A DNA stretch of 64,000 nt. Origin: Promethearchaeota archaeon (GTDB taxonomy: Archaea > Asgardarchaeota > Lokiarchaeia > Sigyniarchaeales > SOKP01). The translations under genes were made by a program, and so were the position numbers. Under the pieces are notes generated by a model. It ran no database searches and was not told where the DNA came from. It saw nothing but the letters and a program-made list of their open reading frames with translations. Position 1 is the stretch's first letter, and every line of letters starts with the position of its first letter. Shown piece by piece: positions 1,787-12,274 of the stretch. Location of the stretch: contig JAEOTS010000141.1 in NCBI GenBank assembly GCA_016839745.1, forward strand, positions 2,138 through 66,137. The letters are read 5' to 3'.

Positions 1787-3118
1787 TTATAAAAAATTAT
1801 CTATTGTTCTTTGAGTTTTAATGAAATTTATTAATTTGCTGCTCTGCTTCCAATATTTATAGCTCACCATGAATCCTTCCGCCATTTTTTTAGTTGAATC
1901 GTCAAAATTATCAAGTATGAGAGGGTTACCTAGTTCCATTGCATTTTTTACCGTTTCTCTGATAACCCAAACACCTAAAGGAACCACATAACCTCCTTGC
2001 ACTTCCCGAAAGATTAGAACTCTTGCTTGCCTTCCGATTTTAAACAAATACTCGCAGACTTCTTTTCGAGCAGCATAGTAAGCACCTGTGATATTACTCG
2101 CGTAATTTTTTCTACCTTTATAAAATTCAAAATCAGTCATTATTTGAGGTTTTAAACTACGGTTGTCTCCATTGAGTGAAATATTCCAAAGAGTATTAGG
2201 CGCCCAAACTTCGTTCATTTCGTAAGTAAATTTGCCTGGAAAAAGAAGAATTTTAAAATGGTTGTCAAGATAAGTGTTTTCGAATATTTGATAATTATCA
2301 ATTTCTGGAAATCTCTTTATTTCTTTGATGAGCGCTTTAGATATAATATCGTCAACTGCAGTAATACTCCATCGTGTTGGAACAATTCTCCGCCTTGTTT
2401 TTTGACCTAATAACCCTGCTGAAAAAACTCTCTTTATTGTTGATTCTGGAACTTGTCCTTTAAAGTAGAGATATTTTGAAACTGCTTCGGTCGCATTTAA
2501 ATCTGTATCAGAAACGACATAATCTACTTTTGGATGAACTTTTGTATTTTCTGTAATCCGAATTTTCTCAGTCATACCCGTAGGTCCCATTGGTAACGCG
2601 TGATTATCCATCATCATTCTGAGACTCATTTTTTCTAACTTCGTCTCAGTATCTACGGGGCGGGCAGCCATCGATAACTCTTGTGAAGTCTCCAATAGTT
2701 TTTGAAGCTTTAAAGGTGGGGTGTTTTTCCGACTCTTTTTTCCAATATTAACATCAATTTTAAAATTATTTCGCACTAAACTACTTCTATACTTAACAAT
2801 GTCAACTAAGCTCTTTCCGAACCACAACTCAGGAGCATCTAAAATGTGATAATCAGAGACATTAAGGTTTATTTCAAATTCTTGGAAGGGAACCAACGGA
2901 CCAAGGTAAACTTTTGGATAATTAAAATGACCGACGAAAAACCCAGGAGGGCTAGGTCCAAATAGCTCAACATCCCGAAGAGTTTTATCGAATTCAAATG
3001 GAACAAGAGATTTCAAAACAGATTTTTTTAATAAGATTGGACAAGTTTTTTTGCCACATAATAATCTCGCTCCTTTACACCGTAAGCAGATGCCTTTTTC
3101 TGTTTGAGGGCGTACCAA
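1787..3118 (-). CDS. archaeal Nre-family DNA repair protein (DUF650/DUF651-like)
   Basis: N-terminal CLRCKGARLLCGKKTCP cysteine cluster typical of Nre. The extreme C-terminus QRTIDNFL fits a PIP box (QxxIxxF[FL]). Confidence 0.6.
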   Translation of the reverse strand: MVRPQTEKGICLRCKGARLLCGKKTCPILLKKSVLKSLVPFEFDKTLRDVELFGPSPPGFFVGHFNYPKVYLGPLVPFQEFEINLNVSDYHILDAPELWFGKSLVDIVKYRSSLVRNNFKIDVNIGKKSRKNTPPLKLQKLLETSQELSMAARPVDTETKLEKMSLRMMMDNHALPMGPTGMTEKIRITENTKVHPKVDYVVSDTDLNATEAVSKYLYFKGQVPESTIKRVFSAGLLGQKTRRRIVPTRWSITAVDDIISKALIKEIKRFPEIDNYQIFENTYLDNHFKILLFPGKFTYEMNEVWAPNTLWNISLNGDNRSLKPQIMTDFEFYKGRKNYASNITGAYYAARKEVCEYLFKIGRQARVLIFREVQGGYVVPLGVWVIRETVKNAMELGNPLILDNFDDSTKKMAEGFMVSYKYWKQSSKLINFIKTQRTIDNFL

Positions 3119-3367: not shown

Positions 3368-5113
3368 TTAAATCTCATAACCACACAGCTTACAAATGTG
3401 TTTCTTAGCGTATATAGGTACTATAGATATATAATATAGGATTTTTGATTTATCTTCAAATTTCTTAATATTTTTTTTGCCATGTGCTCCGCACATTGGA
3501 CATGTGATGTCATCCCATCTTTCTTTATATTTTCCTTTCTTACCCTTAATTATTTTTGCTTTCAAATTCCTAAATTGATTTCTCTTTTCAAGAAAATCAG
3601 ACAGAGATTCTTTAATAAGGTTGAAATTTCCATTTTCTATATATTCAAAGTTACATTTTATAAAACTACGGACATTCATCTTATCTGATTTGTCCATTTT
3701 TTCTTGGTTAATGTTATAAATAGAAAACAATTTTTTAAAAATAAAGGCAATTTCTCTTAAGAACGAACTTGGATTTGATAATATTCCGATTACAACATAA
3801 GTTAAACCATCTTTTTCTAACGAGAAGCATTTAGGAAGAGAAAGTGGATGTTCCCAACTATTAGGAAAATTACATTTTTCAATATAGGGAGCGTAGAGCT
3901 CTAAGATTTTTTGATCGAGATTTCCCTCTAAAAATCTTTCAACAATATAATCTACTCTGTTTTCGCCTTCTAGATAATTAAGGTCAACGTTTGAATATAT
4001 CTGCTCCTTTCCATTAAGAATTATTCCTAAATAATCAATCCATCGCGCCTTAAATCGTTTACTTAATTCAGTATCCTTTCGATGTCGACGATCTATTGGA
4101 TTATACGTTCGAATTTCAATACAATCTTCATAGTGAATATATCGTAACGGAAAATTACATGTTGGACAATAAGAAAGATCTCTTACCTTCGTTCGATTTT
4201 TTTGTAATATCTCTAAAAAATCAATACCAACCGTATTTCCACATTGTTCGCAAGTCGTATTTTCTTTTCCATTTGATAACTTTAGGATAGCATTTGATAA
4301 AATTGCGTGTATTTTTTCTCGATACACAGGATTGGACGCATCAATACCGTAAAATTTTATTCCGCGATCTGATACAATCTTCTCGCAAAATGCAGGAGTG
4401 AGCTTATTAGGCATATCTTGACAGTTTGCGATTCCAATTACCGTTTTATTTTTAGGTATAGAAAACATTTCAATATAACGAATTCTATTTATATCTGCTA
4501 AAGTTGAATTTGTAACTATTATCAATATATCCGATTTCTCTAACACCCGTTCATATACGGATCGAAAACTTTCTGTTCCTATAACCCATAGATTAATAGA
4601 ACGAGTTATCCCATTATATAGTGGTATATCAACATCGGAACGCAACGTGGGAATATATTCAGATTCAATATCGTTTCCACAAATTAAAAGTAATAAAGCT
4701 GTGCTTCCATATCCAATTAACGAAACATTAATTCCATCCAAAATTATGTCATCAATGACATTTTTAAAATCGTCGAATGGTGCTCGATTTTCTCCCCAAA
4801 TCTCGTCGTAGAGGGATTGCTCGTACTTTTCAATAAATTTTGTCCTTATGCTCAAAATTTGCGATTTAATGTGAGAATCGTCATCATCTAAATCCGAACA
4901 AACAACAATAATGATATTATTAATTACACTGTAGAAATACTTAAACTTCTCTGTTTGCGTAAGTCTGATCTCACTTTGGCTATTTTTTTCCTTGAACTCT
5001 AAAAACGAACTTAAGAAATCAGTTAATAAGTCTCTATCTATGTCAATAGTTCCGTATTCTCTAAACAGTAACGATTTTCCATTTTTTGTAAGAATATTTA
5101 CGTACTGAATCAA
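3368..5113 (-). CDS. longin-like domain + Arf/SR-beta-like pseudoGTPase + two Cys4 zinc ribbons
   Basis: The N-terminal ~115 aa have a beta-beta-alpha-beta-beta-alpha pattern (longin-like). The central domain aligns to Arf, but G1 is IGYGSTAL (no GK[ST]), G3 is WVIGTE (for WDxGGQ) and G4 is NCQD (for NKQD). CEQCG...CPTC and CPMCG...CKLCG are zinc ribbons. Confidence 0.6.
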   Translation of the reverse strand: MIQYVNILTKNGKSLLFREYGTIDIDRDLLTDFLSSFLEFKEKNSQSEIRLTQTEKFKYFYSVINNIIIVVCSDLDDDDSHIKSQILSIRTKFIEKYEQSLYDEIWGENRAPFDDFKNVIDDIILDGINVSLIGYGSTALLLLICGNDIESEYIPTLRSDVDIPLYNGITRSINLWVIGTESFRSVYERVLEKSDILIIVTNSTLADINRIRYIEMFSIPKNKTVIGIANCQDMPNKLTPAFCEKIVSDRGIKFYGIDASNPVYREKIHAILSNAILKLSNGKENTTCEQCGNTVGIDFLEILQKNRTKVRDLSYCPTCNFPLRYIHYEDCIEIRTYNPIDRRHRKDTELSKRFKARWIDYLGIILNGKEQIYSNVDLNYLEGENRVDYIVERFLEGNLDQKILELYAPYIEKCNFPNSWEHPLSLPKCFSLEKDGLTYVVIGILSNPSSFLREIAFIFKKLFSIYNINQEKMDKSDKMNVRSFIKCNFEYIENGNFNLIKESLSDFLEKRNQFRNLKAKIIKGKKGKYKERWDDITCPMCGAHGKKNIKKFEDKSKILYYISIVPIYAKKHICKLCGYEI

Positions 5114-5375: not shown

Positions 5376-7607
5376 ATGTTTAATTACGAGAGAAAAAGCG
5401 GAATTGATCTCGAGTATAAAATAAATAAACGCATTACCCTTAAGTTGGAGAATGGGATCACGTATATCTACATAAATGGCATTAAGTTCATTCAATGTAT
5501 GCGATTAACAATAGATATACCGAAAGAAGATATACACTTATATGATGAAGTTGATTCTATAGATGAGGCAGCCAAGTTGTATAGTAAGCATGTATATCAA
5601 AATAGAATCGTAACAGATCCTATGGCGGCTCCTGTGCATGGATTAAGGCATGACATAACTCCCGAACAGGAATTTTGGGGACATTGCTCAAACATTGAGG
5701 CTTGGGTTGAGAACGATTACGATACGAGAATATTAATGAGCAATATATCATTTCCTTTGTTAAGAGAATTGGCTCAAAATGGAGATTTATTGGCCAATAG
5801 AGTCTTCAAAGAAGAAATTGCCCTAAGACTCGAGAGTGGGTATCCTTCAGTTGTTCATTATCTCCTTGAACAAGATTTTTTGAGATTTTTTACTCCTTGT
5901 GAGTTTAAAACGATAATAGAGACCACAAAACTAGTAGAAAACCTCGTGCTTAATCAGAGTTTGTTTATGAAATTTCTAATCTATTCTACTAAGTTATTTC
6001 CAAATCAAATTAAACACATCATATTAAAATTAATATTGCTCCCTAATGGAGAAAACATTCTGATGTCTTTTCTGGCAGAAACCTCAAAAAATTATTATTA
6101 CGGAATAGATGGCAAGTTTTTTAATTCAATTATAGACGATTTGAAAGGAATGTCAAATCAGATTAGTATTGAGCATAGAAAACCTTTTAAGAAAGCTATT
6201 TTAAAAATCGAAGAGTATCTTTCTGAAGAAGACGAGAAGATGAGAAATAAATCAATTAAAGATTTTTATAAGATTATTGTACTTGGGGACCCTGCTGTAG
6301 GGAAAACCGAGCTTCTCGCGAAATTTTCATCACAATTTGAGGAGAAATATTTAAGAACCGTTGGTGTCTCAATTAAAAAATGGTCCATTGAACTGAAAGA
6401 TTATAACGCCACGGTAAATTTGATGTTTTGGAATATCGCAGGACAACCGCAATTTTATATGCTTCATCGCCCATATTTCAAAGACGCAGATGGAATTCTC
6501 CTAGTATTTGATCTTACACGTTCAAATACGTTTAGTAACATTAATAATTGGTATAGCTCAGCTGTTAAATATGGATTAAGTGGAATACCGAGAATATTAG
6601 TAGGAAATAATCTTCATTTAAAAAACGAGAGGAAAATAATACTACCAATGGGAGAACATCTAAGTGATAAATTAAACGCCCCTTATTATGAAACTTCAAC
6701 TCTTACTGGAGAAAATATTAAAGAAGTGTTCGAAAAAATCGCAGAGTTGGTATATTTAGCTCCAGAACGGAATAAAACTTTAAAAAATGAACCTATTTCC
6801 TCCAAAAATAACGAAAAAATATCTAATGATAATAACAGATTGGAAAAACCGTTAGATTGGAAAAGCAAATTAATTTTACTTAAAGAGATACAACCCTCCT
6901 CTGAGGGTAGTGCCACGGAGAAAGAGGGTGAAATCCCAATAGAAATAGATGAGAGAGAAAAACGAGCTTTAGAAACTGTTTTTAGACAATTTAAAGGTTC
7001 AAATCTAGGAAAATCTCAATCTAAGCTTATGAGTTCATTAGAAACGAGAGATCTAGTAGTTTTAACATGTAAATATAAGTTACAAACAGTATTTTTTTGG
7101 TTTTTTGGATTGTTGTTTCTTTTTTTGTGTATTACTCTTCTTTTTGGTCTTGTGTTGTTTATATTTGGTGGATTTGGACCATCGGGTGGAGTAACGATGG
7201 TAATGATTGTTTTGCTATTTCCTTTATCCTTTGGAACTAGTATTTGGTTGATTAGGTACGCACTCACTTTAAAACATTTCTTTATAGTATTACACTATCG
7301 AGGAATTTACTACAAAAAAATCGGTGAACCAAAATTCATAGCGTGGGGTGATATAGCTTGGATGCTAGGTTACACGAAGTATTTTAAAGGACAGCCAACC
7401 AAAGGAAGGGTTGTTAAAATTTATTTGAAATCTAAAAACAAAGTGCGCTTTTACTCAGGTGATTATATCTATAAAGATAAGTTTTTTGAGTTTGATGATG
7501 TTTTTATTTCATATAAATTTAGACGGTGTCCCTTTTATTCAAGGGATCATAACTCATCTGAAGTAAGTCCAATAGGATCCCGCGGGAATCCTTTAGGGTA
7601 CTTTTAA
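5376..7607 (+). CDS. multidomain Rab/Ras-like small GTPase: N-terminal helical-repeat region, GTPase, TM segments, C-terminal membrane-flanked domain
   Basis: G1 is GDPAVGKTELL and G3 is WNIAGQ. The G4 position reads GNNLHL instead of NKxD. The hydrophobic block FFWFFGLLFLFLCITLLFGLVLFIFGG...VMIVLLFPLSF follows the GTPase. Confidence 0.7.
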   Translation: MFNYERKSGIDLEYKINKRITLKLENGITYIYINGIKFIQCMRLTIDIPKEDIHLYDEVDSIDEAAKLYSKHVYQNRIVTDPMAAPVHGLRHDITPEQEFWGHCSNIEAWVENDYDTRILMSNISFPLLRELAQNGDLLANRVFKEEIALRLESGYPSVVHYLLEQDFLRFFTPCEFKTIIETTKLVENLVLNQSLFMKFLIYSTKLFPNQIKHIILKLILLPNGENILMSFLAETSKNYYYGIDGKFFNSIIDDLKGMSNQISIEHRKPFKKAILKIEEYLSEEDEKMRNKSIKDFYKIIVLGDPAVGKTELLAKFSSQFEEKYLRTVGVSIKKWSIELKDYNATVNLMFWNIAGQPQFYMLHRPYFKDADGILLVFDLTRSNTFSNINNWYSSAVKYGLSGIPRILVGNNLHLKNERKIILPMGEHLSDKLNAPYYETSTLTGENIKEVFEKIAELVYLAPERNKTLKNEPISSKNNEKISNDNNRLEKPLDWKSKLILLKEIQPSSEGSATEKEGEIPIEIDEREKRALETVFRQFKGSNLGKSQSKLMSSLETRDLVVLTCKYKLQTVFFWFFGLLFLFLCITLLFGLVLFIFGGFGPSGGVTMVMIVLLFPLSFGTSIWLIRYALTLKHFFIVLHYRGIYYKKIGEPKFIAWGDIAWMLGYTKYFKGQPTKGRVVKIYLKSKNKVRFYSGDYIYKDKFFEFDDVFISYKFRRCPFYSRDHNSSEVSPIGSRGNPLGYF

Positions 7608-8522: not shown

Positions 8523-9248
8523 TTAAACCTTTTTTGGCTTCTTTTTACAGGAATGAGTAAATTGATCATCTTGAGTAAGGAACTTCCCGCAATACTGGCA
8601 ATTAACTTCAACTTCGGTTACTTCTTCTTTTAAGGGAGTACGAATCTGTGATTGAGGTGCCGGTTCGAAATCATCAGGGGGTCTCGGATGAGTGAAAATG
8701 TATGGATATATAAAATGATCGTCGTCATCATCATCCTTGGGTAAGAGCTTCCTTTTTTTACCAACAGTGCGTTTAAGAAATTCTATTGCTAATATTTTAC
8801 CATTCTCAGATAGTATTCTAGGAGAATAATCTTCAGCAAAAAATACACCCTCTGGAATTGCTCCAACTCTAGAAATCTCCTTAGTAACTTCCTTCTTTCC
8901 AAGAAAATTTTGCACTTTCTCGACGACAGAGTATGCGTGATCACCAATAATTATTAGTTCTCGTTCAAAACCATCAGGTATTTTAATTTCTTCTAATTTT
9001 TGCATTATCAAGTCAAAATTAGCATGAGTTTCTTCCTGAACGAGTGTTAAAAACTTTTCTTCCCATTTGGTAATAGCTTGTTTTACTAAGGCTTGTATAG
9101 TTTTCATTATTTGTTGTGGATTAATATTTGGAATTGCTACTATCCTTAATACCCAATCTACGATAAGATTTTGATTAGGAAAAACAGACCCACTCAAATC
9201 TTCATCCTTAAAAATGTAAGAATTTATTAAGGTATTCCCCTTTAGCAA
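8523..9248 (-). CDS. protein with C-terminal Pro-rich + C2HC zinc-knuckle + KKKPKK tail (frame open upstream to 9353)
   Basis: The C-terminus YPYIFTHPRPPDDF...CQYCGKFLTQDDQFTHSCKKKPKKV is paralogous to the tail of 9370-10677. The track start is TTG, and the in-frame upstream sequence reads like an HTH segment. Confidence 0.6.
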   Translation of the reverse strand: MLKGNTLINSYIFKDEDLSGSVFPNQNLIVDWVLRIVAIPNINPQQIMKTIQALVKQAITKWEEKFLTLVQEETHANFDLIMQKLEEIKIPDGFERELIIIGDHAYSVVEKVQNFLGKKEVTKEISRVGAIPEGVFFAEDYSPRILSENGKILAIEFLKRTVGKKRKLLPKDDDDDDHFIYPYIFTHPRPPDDFEPAPQSQIRTPLKEEVTEVEVNCQYCGKFLTQDDQFTHSCKKKPKKV

Positions 9249-9369: not shown

Positions 9370-10677
9370 TTATGTTTTTTTTGGCTTCTTTTTACAAGAA
9401 TGCGTAAGATGATCTTCTTTAGTAAGCTCCATTCCACAATATTGACATGCAATTTTTATTTCTGATTCCTTTTTCTTTGGAGGATGGCGAAGTTGCGCTC
9501 GACCTGCCAACGCTAAGTCGCCAGGTGGTTTTGGAGGTTTGAAAATAAAAGGAAAAGGAAAACGATCGTCTCCGTCAAACTTAGATTTCTTTGCCAAGTG
9601 CTTTGGATCCTTTGTATAAATCACTAAATTATTGTCTTCGCTACTTCCAACAATTGAGAACAATAATTCTTCTCCGTCCCGATCTATTAAGAAGCGGTCA
9701 CGGTCTTCATAGAGTCGAATCGTGATGTTATCCAAACTTTCTAATTCTGCTAAAAGTTTCGCATCTTCTTCAAGGCTTGGATCAAAATTGCACATGATCT
9801 TCAAGTTTACCGAAAAACGCACCTCGTACAGATGCAAATCTTGCAGATCGTTTATATCGGGAACTACAATTGTCACATAGTGAACCGCATTTCCTAATAT
9901 TTCTCGAATCTTTTTCAAAATCTCAGATTTAGGAATCACCATGAACGTTGAATCGATGATTTTTGCTTCAGCCTTCGAAGCAAGGTATTTCCGCAATCTC
10001 TCGTTTTCAATTTCTAACGCTTCCAAAATTTCATCGGCTTTTTCTAATTCCCCTTTTAAGATGGTTAGTTTTTTCTGATATTCTTCGATTTCTTCATCTT
10101 TCTCTGCTAAGAGATCTTTTTTAACCGTAGATGATTTCAACTCTTTTACTTCTTCTTCTTTCAAATTAATAGATGTTTCTAATGCCTTAATCTTCTGGTT
10201 TTTTATTTCTAATGACTTGCTAAGCCTATTAATTTGTTGCTCTTTTAAGTTTATTGCGTCGATCATGGTTTTTATTTGATCATCTTTCAGGTTTACCGAT
10301 TTAATTAAATTATTTATTAGTTTATCATCGTCATTAAATCCTTTGAGAAGTAAATATCCATCAGCACCAAGTTCTTTTCCTTTCTGGATATCTTCAAAAA
10401 AATTCTTAGCAGTATAAAGAATTACTAAAATTTTAGGATATTTTGACTTGATCTCAGCCAAAATATCATAGCCACTCATACTAGGGAGCAATATATCAAG
10501 CAATACGAGTGCTATTTCATTGTGTTTTTCTTTAATAATGTCTAGTGCGTCATATCCATTGCTACAAGTGATAGTTTCGTAATTCTCGAGTTGTAAAAAC
10601 TTCTCAGTCAGATTAGTTATATCTTCATTTTCCATAACGATCAAAACTTTTTTCAATGCTGGCATAAGAAACTCCAA
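9370..10677 (-). CDS. response-regulator receiver + coiled coil + alpha/beta domain + C2HC zinc-knuckle tail
   Basis: CheY-like N-terminus (KKVLIVMENED ... LVLLDILLPSMSGYD ... LYTAKN). INLK(D/E)xx(I/V) heptad-rich coiled coil. Tail FPFIFKPPKPPGD...CQYCGMELTKEDHLTHSCKKKPKKT. The likely real start is ATG at 10665. Confidence 0.75.
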   Translation of the reverse strand: MEFLMPALKKVLIVMENEDITNLTEKFLQLENYETITCSNGYDALDIIKEKHNEIALVLLDILLPSMSGYDILAEIKSKYPKILVILYTAKNFFEDIQKGKELGADGYLLLKGFNDDDKLINNLIKSVNLKDDQIKTMIDAINLKEQQINRLSKSLEIKNQKIKALETSINLKEEEVKELKSSTVKKDLLAEKDEEIEEYQKKLTILKGELEKADEILEALEIENERLRKYLASKAEAKIIDSTFMVIPKSEILKKIREILGNAVHYVTIVVPDINDLQDLHLYEVRFSVNLKIMCNFDPSLEEDAKLLAELESLDNITIRLYEDRDRFLIDRDGEELLFSIVGSSEDNNLVIYTKDPKHLAKKSKFDGDDRFPFPFIFKPPKPPGDLALAGRAQLRHPPKKKESEIKIACQYCGMELTKEDHLTHSCKKKPKKT

Positions 10678-11526
10678 TTATGTGGCATCCTTCTCATTTT
10701 TCTGAGCATACAATAATTCGGCTACTCTTTGGAAAACGAGAGTTACGTTCTCCCCAGTAGCTAAGGAGACTTCAAAATAGGGAGCGTTCAACTTTTTACT
10801 TAAATTTTGCACCATCGGGTTAATAATTTTGCGTTCTGACTCTGATTTTGCGTCATTGTTAATCCCTACTAATATTCTCGGAACTCCGCTAAGACCATAC
10901 TTGACGCAGGATTGCCACCAGTTATTGACATTACTAAAAGTGCTAGAACGCGTTGTATCAAAAACTAAAATAACGCCGTCAGCACCAATAAAGTATGGTC
11001 TGTGGAGCATATAAAATTGTGGTTGTCCGGCGATATCCCAGAACATCAAGTTGATGGTTTTATTAATTTTATCAAGAGTAATTTGTTTTTTTAAAATTGA
11101 AACGCCGACGGTTGGAAGATTTTTATCTTCAGATATATCCGTGGCAAATTTAGCAAGGAGTTCTGTTTTACCGCATTCAGGGTCACCAATCACGATAACT
11201 TTATATATTGACTCAGTATTTCCTTGGAGTTTAACACTATCTTCATTAGAAAAAGTTGGCTTAATTTTTTCGCTTTTTTCAATTGGAGTTAAATCTGAGT
11301 CAGAGGGTGTTCTATTTTTTAAACGGGATTTTTCTAATTCTTCTATTTTAACTTTCGCGTCTTCTAATTCCTGATAAACTCTATTTAATTCATTTTTTGT
11401 ATTTGCAAGTTCCCGTTCCAAATCGTTTACTTTTTTCCGTAGATCTAGTAAAAATCTTCCCTCCACTTTAATCATCCTATCGGGATATCTTTCTGCTCTT
11501 TCCCACATTGTTTTTAGGATTTTCAT
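10678..11526 (-). CDS. coiled-coil + Rab/Ras-like small GTPase (paralog of the GTPase in 5376-7607)
   Basis: G1 is GDPECGKTELL and G3 is WDIAGQPQFYMLHRPYF (the same extended motif as in 5376-7607). G4 is degenerate (VGINNDA). N-terminal ELANTKNELNRVYQELEDAKVKIEELEK is a coiled coil. Confidence 0.75.
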   Translation of the reverse strand: MKILKTMWERAERYPDRMIKVEGRFLLDLRKKVNDLERELANTKNELNRVYQELEDAKVKIEELEKSRLKNRTPSDSDLTPIEKSEKIKPTFSNEDSVKLQGNTESIYKVIVIGDPECGKTELLAKFATDISEDKNLPTVGVSILKKQITLDKINKTINLMFWDIAGQPQFYMLHRPYFIGADGVILVFDTTRSSTFSNVNNWWQSCVKYGLSGVPRILVGINNDAKSESERKIINPMVQNLSKKLNAPYFEVSLATGENVTLVFQRVAELLYAQKNEKDAT

Positions 11527-11674: not shown

Positions 11675-12274
11675 TCAAACCTTATTAAATTGTGAATAGA
11701 TGAAAAATAATTGAGCAAATTCAACACCTAACGCACCTCCACCTAAAACAATCATAGACTTAGGTAGCTTTTTTAATTGAAGTGCTTCAATATTCGTGAT
11801 ATAATCGACTTGTTCAATCCCATTTATTGGTGGAATAAAAGATGAGGAGCCAGTAGCAATAATAAAATTCTTTGCTTGGTATGTTGTTTGATTATCTACT
11901 TGAATTTTTGAATTTGATAAGAATTTAGCATTGCCCTCAACTAGGTCAACATTGGGTAATTTCTTTAGGACATTTTGGTATTTGTCGAATTGTAATTGTT
12001 TGATAAGATTATTTTTTCCCTCGATGACTTTTTGAAAATTAACAGAAATTGACGATTTTATCCCTTCAAATCTTTGCTCTCTCGATTCGTAAATTAAATC
12101 TCCTATATTTAGCAAATATTTTGTAGGAACACACCCTACATTAACGCATGTTCCACCTAAACCTATTGTATCATTATTTATCATTAGAGTTTTAATTTTT
12201 AAGTCATTAGCTTTCATTGCAGCAGCAAATCCAGCAGCTCCTCCACCAATAATTATTAAATCATATTTTCCCAT
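11675..12274 (-). pseudogene. truncated pyridine nucleotide-disulfide oxidoreductase (dihydrolipoamide dehydrogenase / mercuric reductase-like), N-terminal 199 aa only
   Basis: FAD motif IIGGGAAG and redox-active GGTCVNVGCVPTK are present. The ORF stops inside the second Rossmann motif (VLGGGALGVEFAQ). The family is normally ~450 aa and only ~150 nt remain before the next gene. Confidence 0.7.

Follow-up and report, generated by a model that had tools for sequence, protein, structure and literature searches.

Introduction

Asgard archaea possess large repertoires of small GTPases, which are thought to foreshadow the regulation of membrane traffic in eukaryotes, where pseudoGTPases and longin platforms are both central to that regulation. 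The gene described here lies at positions 3368–5113 on the minus strand of a 64,000-nucleotide stretch of DNA from a Loki-type Asgard archaeon (Promethearchaeota archaeon, contig JAEOTS010000141.1) and draws together several systems of this kind that have been described separately. GTPases fused to longin and/or roadblock domains are known from MK-D1, where they were classed as Rag-like but are close to Arf (Tran et al., 2024; PMC10933270), and a paper from 2025 reports that N-terminal longin domains occur in Asgard Arfs, the AArfs (PMC11914678). A Zn domain restricted to Loki is found on unrelated multidomain proteins, always at the C-terminus and with a conserved extended loop; it does not bind F-actin, and its binding target is probably some feature or complex of the cell (Akil et al., 2022; PMC9433394). 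In AAGAB, a class i pseudoGTPase domain binds the longin fold of sigma-adaptin, in the AP-1 and AP-2 sigma subunits (PMC12490416; PDB 9ddt).

The stretch of DNA is referred to below as the window, and all positions without a contig label are window coordinates. The product of the gene has 581 residues, in which an N-terminal longin domain (L1) is followed by a putative pseudoGTPase domain (pG), a zinc ribbon (ZnR1), a probable second longin-like domain (L2) and a C-terminal zinc-binding domain (ZnR2). We consider that the protein is probably a nucleotide-independent scaffold, a pseudoGTPase paralogue of the Lokiarchaeial longin–Arf-like GTPase family that carries three extra modules, and put the probability of this reading at roughly 0.6.

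The gene and its reading frame

The gene is a single intact open reading frame (ORF) of 581 codons and a stop, in a window with a G+C content of about 31%. Translation starts at TTG (5111–5113). The codons TAA AAG precede it in frame, which excludes an alternative start. The intact frame and the TTG start are common to the window gene and three orthologues, and the TTG lies at the same position in all four (L001:1012, L084:3007 and L085:2920 in the other three). A scan for promoters and terminators of bacterial type was uninformative, the host being an archaeon.

The longin–Arf-like GTPase family

On its own the window protein gives no GTPase or longin match in Pfam or NCBIfam, and the only hint of its nature is a marginal match to Arl2 (E 0.018). 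Assignment of its domains therefore required relatives and profiles. The N-terminal 283 residues are 45–53% identical to canonical longin–GTPase proteins, with E values of 1e-70 to 1e-82. This similarity is collinear over residues 1–280 and takes in the full length of the family over about 285 residues, which makes the protein a member. With values of this order, and with motifs that align column for column, the resemblance is not a matter of chance.

A search of 5.8 billion protein clusters recovered two full-length orthologues, P0002 (71% identity) and P0003 (66%). The other relatives found there align only to the first 283 residues, at 45–50% identity. When 1.84 billion representatives were scanned with HMMER, 257 matches were obtained at E ≤ 0.001. 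With one genome taken per GTDB species, 134 relatives were confirmed, nearly all of them in metagenome-assembled genomes (MAGs) of Promethearchaeota (Loki-type Asgard). The typical relative in this set has about 290 residues, and the sole further full-length orthologue is that of Promethearchaeia archaeon ABR02 (L001). The clade to which the window protein belongs is tiny, with five sequences in the 5.8 billion clusters and one among 185,579 GTDB species representatives. In a neighbour-joining tree it forms a monophyletic long branch inside the longin–GTPase family; its position on a long stem next to a large canonical group is likely to reflect long-branch behaviour.

The core common to the family consists of the N-terminal domain and the small-GTPase domain. 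In the window protein the former, L1, spans residues 1–125 (4739–5113, minus strand). The family profile of this domain matches AP-2 sigma (E 1.7e-6, profile positions 1–99), and further matches are to AP-3 and AP-4 sigma, delta-COP, AP-1 sigma3, MON1 and BET5. The modelled topology, ββ-α-βββ-αα, agrees with that of a longin domain, with a predicted local distance difference test (pLDDT) score of 70–80. Foldseek places L1 with AP2 sigma (2e-6), Sec22b (template-modelling (TM) score 0.69), the N-termini of mu-adaptins and zeta-COP. The longin-like N-terminal module that a first-pass annotation of the window had proposed is thus borne out by profile, topology and structural matches to sigma-adaptin and Sec22b. 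The model used for L1 and the G domain is a full-length AlphaFold2 (AF2) prediction from eight sequences and is poor overall (mean pLDDT 44). A deep full-length alignment failed, as MAFFT misplaces fragments of L2 and ZnR2 when sequences consisting of longin and GTPase only are included, and AF2 modelling with a larger alignment was therefore confined to the C-terminal half. Taken with the Arf matches described below, the longin matches of profile and model establish that the family joins a sigma-adaptin-like longin domain to an Arf-like GTPase.

A G domain with its fold retained and its nucleotide-binding motifs lost

The G domain occupies residues 126–283 (4265–4738, minus strand) and is assigned to the Arf-like small-GTPase fold by identity, profile and Foldseek. 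It is about 50% identical to proteins with Pfam Arf, Roc or Ras matches of 1e-13 to 1e-15. Single Pfam models do not separate these three families, and canonical members match Roc, Arf and Ras about equally (1e-12 to 1e-15). The best 60 matches of the family profile to PDB sequences are all to Arf or Arl proteins (Arf1, E 1.5e-30), and the orthologue P0003 passes the Pfam Arf gathering score. The central domain had been annotated as resembling Arf and SR-beta; the affinity to Arf holds, whereas that to SR-beta finds no support among these PDB matches. A Foldseek search with the low-confidence model returned 275 matches at E ≤ 0.001, comprising small GTPases and longin-fold proteins; 9ddt_B is among the Foldseek matches.

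Three motifs are degenerate. The P-loop remnant VSLIGYGSTALL (residues 130–141; 4691–4726, minus strand) has suffered a three-residue deletion that takes out the G-K-[ST] element, so that the sequence here, LIGYGSTALL, no longer contains the G1 consensus GxxxxGK[ST]. In the G3/switch II remnant NLWVIGTESFRSVY (residues 174–187; 4553–4594, minus strand) the Asp is lost and the catalytic Gln is replaced by Thr. The G4 remnant IANCQDMP (residues 228–235; 4409–4432, minus strand) has Cys in place of Lys, with Asn, Gln and Asp kept. Column by column, these remnants correspond to GGVGKTT, WDFAGQxxFRSLW and IANKQDLP of the canonical relatives. The motif strings given in the first-pass annotation, together with two CxxC...CxxC pairs, are present where it had placed them, and the losses that it had read from them, of the P-loop Lys, the G3 Asp and Gln and the G4 Lys, stand out clearly as a deletion and replacements against the intact motifs of the relatives.

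The same losses mark the clade as a whole. The P-loop Gly-Lys-Thr has been removed by an identical three-residue deletion in the window protein, P0002, P0003 and L001, and only in these. Where relatives have WDFAGQ at G3, the window protein has W-VIGTE and the orthologues have WN[FL]AG[IT]E. DxxGQ is missing throughout the clade: in the orthologues Asn takes the place of the Asp, which the window protein has lost through a one-residue deletion, and Thr or Ile stands where the catalytic Gln would be. At G4 the clade has NCQD, or NFQD in the L083 pseudogene discussed below, neither of which conforms to [NT]KxD. In the family at large GxxxxGK[ST] is found in 83 of 83 longin–GTPase cluster representatives and across an alignment of 73 relatives, two of which deviate (GKN, or an altered first half); the 73 also retain the PT of switch I and WD/NxxGQ, and nearly all have NKQD. 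A comparison of orthologues, which had been proposed as a check on the annotation, thus gives a clear division between orthologues that lose the motifs and some 150 paralogues that keep them. As the degenerate motifs recur in four independent assemblies (the window together with Logan contigs, JGI, ENA and the NCBI MAG ABR02), their loss is not a sequencing artefact.

Outside these motifs the protein is better preserved, and residues that determine the fold are kept in the longin as well as in the GTPase domain. Canonical relatives show at least 95% conservation in 120 columns, and in 79 of these all four pseudo members are unchanged too, while the 25 changed columns of the G domain include every nucleotide-contacting position (G1, G2, G3 and G4). 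The C-terminal YREK helix and the hydrophobic core are in large part retained. At the level of sequence, a preserved fold with the active site gone is the pattern of a pseudoenzyme, and a GTPase fold from which the G motifs are absent is what characterizes the class i pseudoGTPases. The domain is therefore predicted to be a class i pseudoGTPase that would no longer bind or hydrolyse GTP in the canonical manner; the first-pass annotation had also predicted a pseudoGTPase.

Milder motif changes are seen in relatives that have C-terminal extensions (roadblock or zinc ribbons) and keep the P-loop, namely P0004, P0005, P0006, P0007 and L077:6181-7671. NNQD occurs in P0004, P0005 and P0007, WNFAGQ in P0006 and P0007, and GKN in L077, the last being a natural change like Ras S17N.

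The C-terminal half: two zinc-binding domains and an orphan domain

The C-terminal half was modelled separately (residues 285–581; hand-curated alignment of 27 rows; mean pLDDT 79.7). It begins with ZnR1 (residues 286–322; 4148–4258, minus strand), a zinc ribbon of the form CEQC...CPTC that contains a helical insert and has a conserved NP[IL] after it. ZnR1 has a weak match to Pfam Zn_ribbon_15 and is modelled with low confidence (pLDDT 45–73). Its CxxC pairs (residues 288–291 and 316–319), like those of ZnR2 (538–541 and 574–577), are intact, and all eight zinc-binding Cys are conserved in the orthologues. The Cys pairs of ZnR1 are also conserved in stand-alone ZnR1–L2 proteins.

Both zinc ribbons had been recognized in the first-pass annotation, which missed the separate folded domain that lies between them. 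This domain, L2 (residues 350–525; 3539–4066, minus strand), is modelled mostly at pLDDT 85–96 as ββ-αα-ββ-α-α-α and carries an invariant WIDY[LF]G motif. No match to L2 was found in Pfam or among PDB sequences. The L2 family is tiny, an additional search for homologues gaining one sequence only; ZnR1–L2 occurs as a stand-alone protein in P0026, P0035, P0056 and P0158, and L2 alone in P0040 and P0050. Foldseek gave nothing for the L2 model at E ≤ 0.001. Nearly all of its top 50 matches are longin or roadblock proteins, at E values of 0.02–0.4. AP2 sigma is the best (E 0.02, probability 0.95), with further weak matches to Mon1–Ccz1, TRAPP Bet5/Trs23, BLOC-3 and SRX (TM-score 0.54), and with zeta-COP, sedlin, MglB, dynein LC7 and Fuzzy–Inturned also among the matches. 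With moderate confidence, L2 is read from these matches as a divergent longin-like domain.

The protein ends with a basic linker and ZnR2 (residues 532–581; 3371–3520, minus strand), which contains CPMC...CKLCGYEI and is modelled at pLDDT 86–93. The ZnR2 profile aligns end to end with residues 286–332 of the Loki gelsolin 2DGel (7WHG_G; E 0.009), pairing all four Cys, the DKS, the Y and the KK. ZnR2 is the Loki-specific Zn domain. About 20 other occurrences of the domain were found, all C-terminal and many at the ends of coiled-coil proteins. Elsewhere in the window, a Rab-like GTPase is encoded at 10678–11526 (minus strand), residues 8–62 of which are 50% identical to the N-termini of P0093, P0136 and P0144; these three are long coiled-coil proteins, each with a terminal Loki Zn domain.

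Selection on the gene

Ratios of non-synonymous to synonymous substitution rates (dN/dS) were calculated by the Nei–Gojobori method for the window gene paired with each of the three intact orthologues (dS 0.47–0.67). The whole gene gives 0.30–0.34. The lowest values are those of ZnR2 (0.09–0.15) and L1 (0.18–0.22), followed by the pseudo-G domain (0.31–0.36; bootstrap 95% limits 0.19–0.57) and by ZnR1 plus L2 (0.38–0.48). The bootstrap upper limits for the individual domains, 0.35–0.75, all lie below 1. Canonical orthologue pairs at comparable distance (dS 0.4–0.8) have a median of 0.065. Constraint on the clade is thus relaxed about five-fold relative to its active relatives, yet selection is purifying in every domain.

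Proposed function and alternative explanations

In the reading that we favour, the nucleotide-dead G domain would persist as an unchanging surface for interactions. Together, L1 and L2 may form a platform of longin type, comparable to the eukaryotic ones on which small GTPases are carried (AP sigma/mu, TRAPP, Mon1–Ccz1, SRX). ZnR2 may direct the protein to a cellular site or complex that it would share with the many coiled-coil proteins and gelsolins ending in the Zn domain. The protein would then act, independently of nucleotide, as a constitutive scaffold or decoy and not as a molecular switch. Such a scaffold could hold or regulate GTPases that do switch, these being the canonical longin–GTPase paralogues and/or the membrane-anchored Rab-like protein encoded next to it. 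A modular origin supports this reading, as ZnR1–L2 exists in stand-alone proteins and ZnR1 is already attached to a canonical G domain, with WDFAGQ and NKQD, in P0016/L092. AAGAB, whose class i pseudoGTPase domain attaches to the longin fold of sigma-adaptin, offers a precedent.

Several observations weigh against the scaffold. The contacts between L1, L2 and pG were not modelled with confidence (full-length pLDDT 44), and the assignment of L2 as a longin domain draws on Foldseek scores that are weak (best E 0.02) with a high r.m.s.d. and only four strands assigned. A profile–profile comparison of L2 with L1 gives no sign that one is a duplicate of the other (probability below 1%). The Asn, Gln and Asp of G4 (NKxD) and the Ala of G5 are still conserved, and some base recognition could survive. 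A conserved operon was rejected, as the orthologues have different neighbours. Lastly, a fifth copy of the gene (L083:3769-5552; ERZ27256783 k141_2347980) is a pseudogene: it contains a frameshift near residue 430 as well as two in-frame stops, of which one falls in the P-loop remnant. Gene callers have divided it among three ORFs (P0009, P0018 and a 56-residue piece). This decay in one lineage, with the five-fold rise in dN/dS, means that the function is dispensable or weakly constrained.

The gene could instead be a decaying duplicate heading for loss, in which the missing motifs reflect simple erosion and the protein has no specific function. We regard this as unlikely. The raised dN/dS, the broken L083 copy, the very small clade, the weak TTG start codon and the unconserved synteny all agree with it, but a frame of 581–592 codons has stayed intact in four lineages as much as 0.67 apart in dS, and dN/dS is below 1 in every domain. 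All eight zinc-binding Cys and 79 of the 120 family-invariant residues have been kept, and the clade has gained extra domains and retained them.

A second alternative is that the G domain retains some non-canonical binding of a nucleotide or other ligand, by recognition of the guanine base without the Mg2+ and phosphate clamp or with changed specificity, and works as a slow or locked switch. The retention of N230, Q232 and D233 of G4, of the G5 Ala and, in the window protein, of Thr156 of switch I would suit such a role, as would the graded changes (NNQD, WNFAGQ, GKN) in relatives that have a P-loop. However, the P-loop Lys and Ser/Thr, which bind the beta- and gamma-phosphates and Mg2+ in all P-loop NTPases (Leipe et al., 2002), are deleted. 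The Asp and Gln of G3 have gone too, with an additional one-residue G3 deletion in the window protein, as has the Lys of G4, and residual binding of this kind is on balance improbable.

The same low standing is given to an intramolecular mimic, in which the dead G domain would sit on its own L1 and L2 as a built-in pseudo-substrate and autoinhibit a platform resembling guanine nucleotide exchange factors (GEFs) or GTPase-activating proteins (GAPs) until displaced by a real GTPase: longin/roadblock dimers are the usual GEF/GAP platform (PMC10933270; PMC3747258), the ZnR1–L2 module, which also occurs free, is here fused to a longin–GTPase protein, and longin–G–roadblock relatives exist (P0006, P0007 and L077), but L2 has only four clear strands and a weak longin assignment, and Asgard longin domains are not known to have GEF or GAP activity.

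A nucleotide-independent scaffold accordingly remains our preferred reading. A protein that seems to have been inactivated in nature, in an archaeal family whose other members are uniformly active, and that is still under purifying selection and joined to additional longin-type and targeting modules, provides a test case for whether non-switching scaffolds were already present in the archaeal relatives of eukaryotes. The gene also joins three poorly understood Loki modules, the sigma-adaptin-like longin, the orphan WIDY domain and the gelsolin Zn domain. Its narrow distribution and relaxed constraint limit the generality of what can be learned from it.

Genomic neighbourhood and recurring modules

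The divergent neighbour of the gene (5376–7607, plus strand) is a separate gene for a protein of 743 residues, which consists of an N-terminal domain (Nd), a Rab-like GTPase domain, a transmembrane segment and a C-terminal domain. The G3 motif of its Rab-like domain is WNIAGQ, with Asp changed to Asn. The two genes are also adjacent on two further contigs, which encode the identical protein, though not in the orthologues. Parts of the neighbour recur in other contexts. Its transmembrane segment and C-terminal part are joined to a canonical longin–GTPase in P0008 and P0012, and P0010 consists of Nd and ZnR2. At 56% identity, Nd matches the N-terminus of a repeat protein whose gene lies directly upstream of that for the L2-only protein P0040 in L086 and L088; in L087 a shorter gene, without Nd, has been called at this place. 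That the pseudoGTPase gene and the 5376–7607 gene work together is suggested by these associations, though at most suggested.

The repeat protein (505 aa; L086:4417-6525, also in L087 and L088) combines Nd with 40-residue repeats and is encoded 67 nt upstream of P0040, whose neighbourhood includes genes for VPS28, EMC3/TMCO1 and SecY. In P0095, the C-terminal part of a repeat protein of this kind is joined to a zinc ribbon and ZnR2.

Other genes of the window are noted for completeness. Downstream of the pseudoGTPase gene, a homologue of the DNA-repair protein NreA is encoded at 1787–3118 (minus strand; NCBIfam E 2e-76, below the equivalog cut-off), with no evident link to it. Two adjacent genes at 8523–9248 and 9370–10677 (both minus strand) encode products that share the tail CQYCG...THSCKKKPKK, a Cys/His cluster with a polybasic end; the product of the latter carries, in addition, a response-regulator receiver domain at its N-terminus and a long coiled coil. 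A 199-residue ORF at 11675–12274 (minus strand) resembles the N-terminal FAD-binding part of a pyridine-nucleotide-disulfide oxidoreductase; it ends early and may be truncated or frameshifted.

Comparison with known systems

The longin–GTPase fusions of Loki (PMC10933270, PMC11914678) and the C-terminal Zn domain (PMC9433394) are already published. The pseudoGTPase variant, the architecture L1–pG–ZnR1–L2–ZnR2 and the WIDY domain appear to be undescribed, and a literature search found no paper that pairs pseudoGTPases with Asgard archaea. The published fusions from Loki and MK-D1 likewise include proteins with extra C-terminal domains, in the order longin–G–roadblock. These fusions and the roughly 150 relatives examined here keep the P-loop, in contrast to the present clade, which has lost the G1, G3 and G4 residues and has added ZnR1, a probable second domain of longin type and the Loki Zn domain.

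Like eukaryotic Arf, the longin–GTPase family carries WDxxGQxxxRxLW in switch II and NKQD. In place of the N-terminal amphipathic (myristoylated) helix of Arf there is a longin domain of 125 residues, and the window protein has its nucleotide-binding motifs destroyed, which should preclude a switch of the Arf type.

The pairing of a longin or roadblock platform with a small GTPase is shared with SRX–SRbeta, MglB–MglA, Rag–Ragulator, TRAPP, Mon1–Ccz1 and BLOC-3. SRX–SRbeta, MglB–MglA, Rag–Ragulator and the longin-dimer GEFs and GAPs differ from the window protein in being formed from separate chains and in having an active GTPase, and no context of signal recognition particle (SRP) receptor, TOR or motility was found at this locus. 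An SRX–SRbeta pair was considered and rejected, as there is no transmembrane segment, the best 60 PDB matches are all Arf or Arl, and SRX appears only as a weak match of L2. A relationship to Rag/Gtr was also set aside, since the order here is longin–G, the roadblock of Rag lies C-terminal to its G domain, and the profiles favour Arf. The gelsolins Loki2DGel and MKD1-2DGel share with the window protein a zinc domain that has the pattern (CxxC)2, is strictly C-terminal, contains an extended conserved hairpin and is restricted to Loki; here it ends a predicted pseudoGTPase protein and not a gelsolin.

A bolder interpretation, which we hold to be doubtful, would make this the first described archaeal pseudoGTPase, a single chain with a nucleotide-dead Arf-like domain between two longin-type domains. 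It would be a counterpart of AAGAB–sigma or of decoy-bearing GEF/GAP complexes, targeted by its Zn domain and working with the adjacent Rab-like GTPase. If this were true, control of small-GTPase networks by pseudoenzymes would predate eukaryotes and have arisen in Asgard archaea.

AAGAB binds sigma in trans and is an assembly chaperone of eukaryotic adaptor complexes, whereas here the two folds lie in one chain, in an archaeon that is not known to have AP complexes, and the resemblance shown is that of the shared folds. AAGAB–sigma and the window protein are alike in placing a pseudoGTPase fold alongside a longin of the sigma-adaptin type, and AAGAB is the closest characterized analogue.

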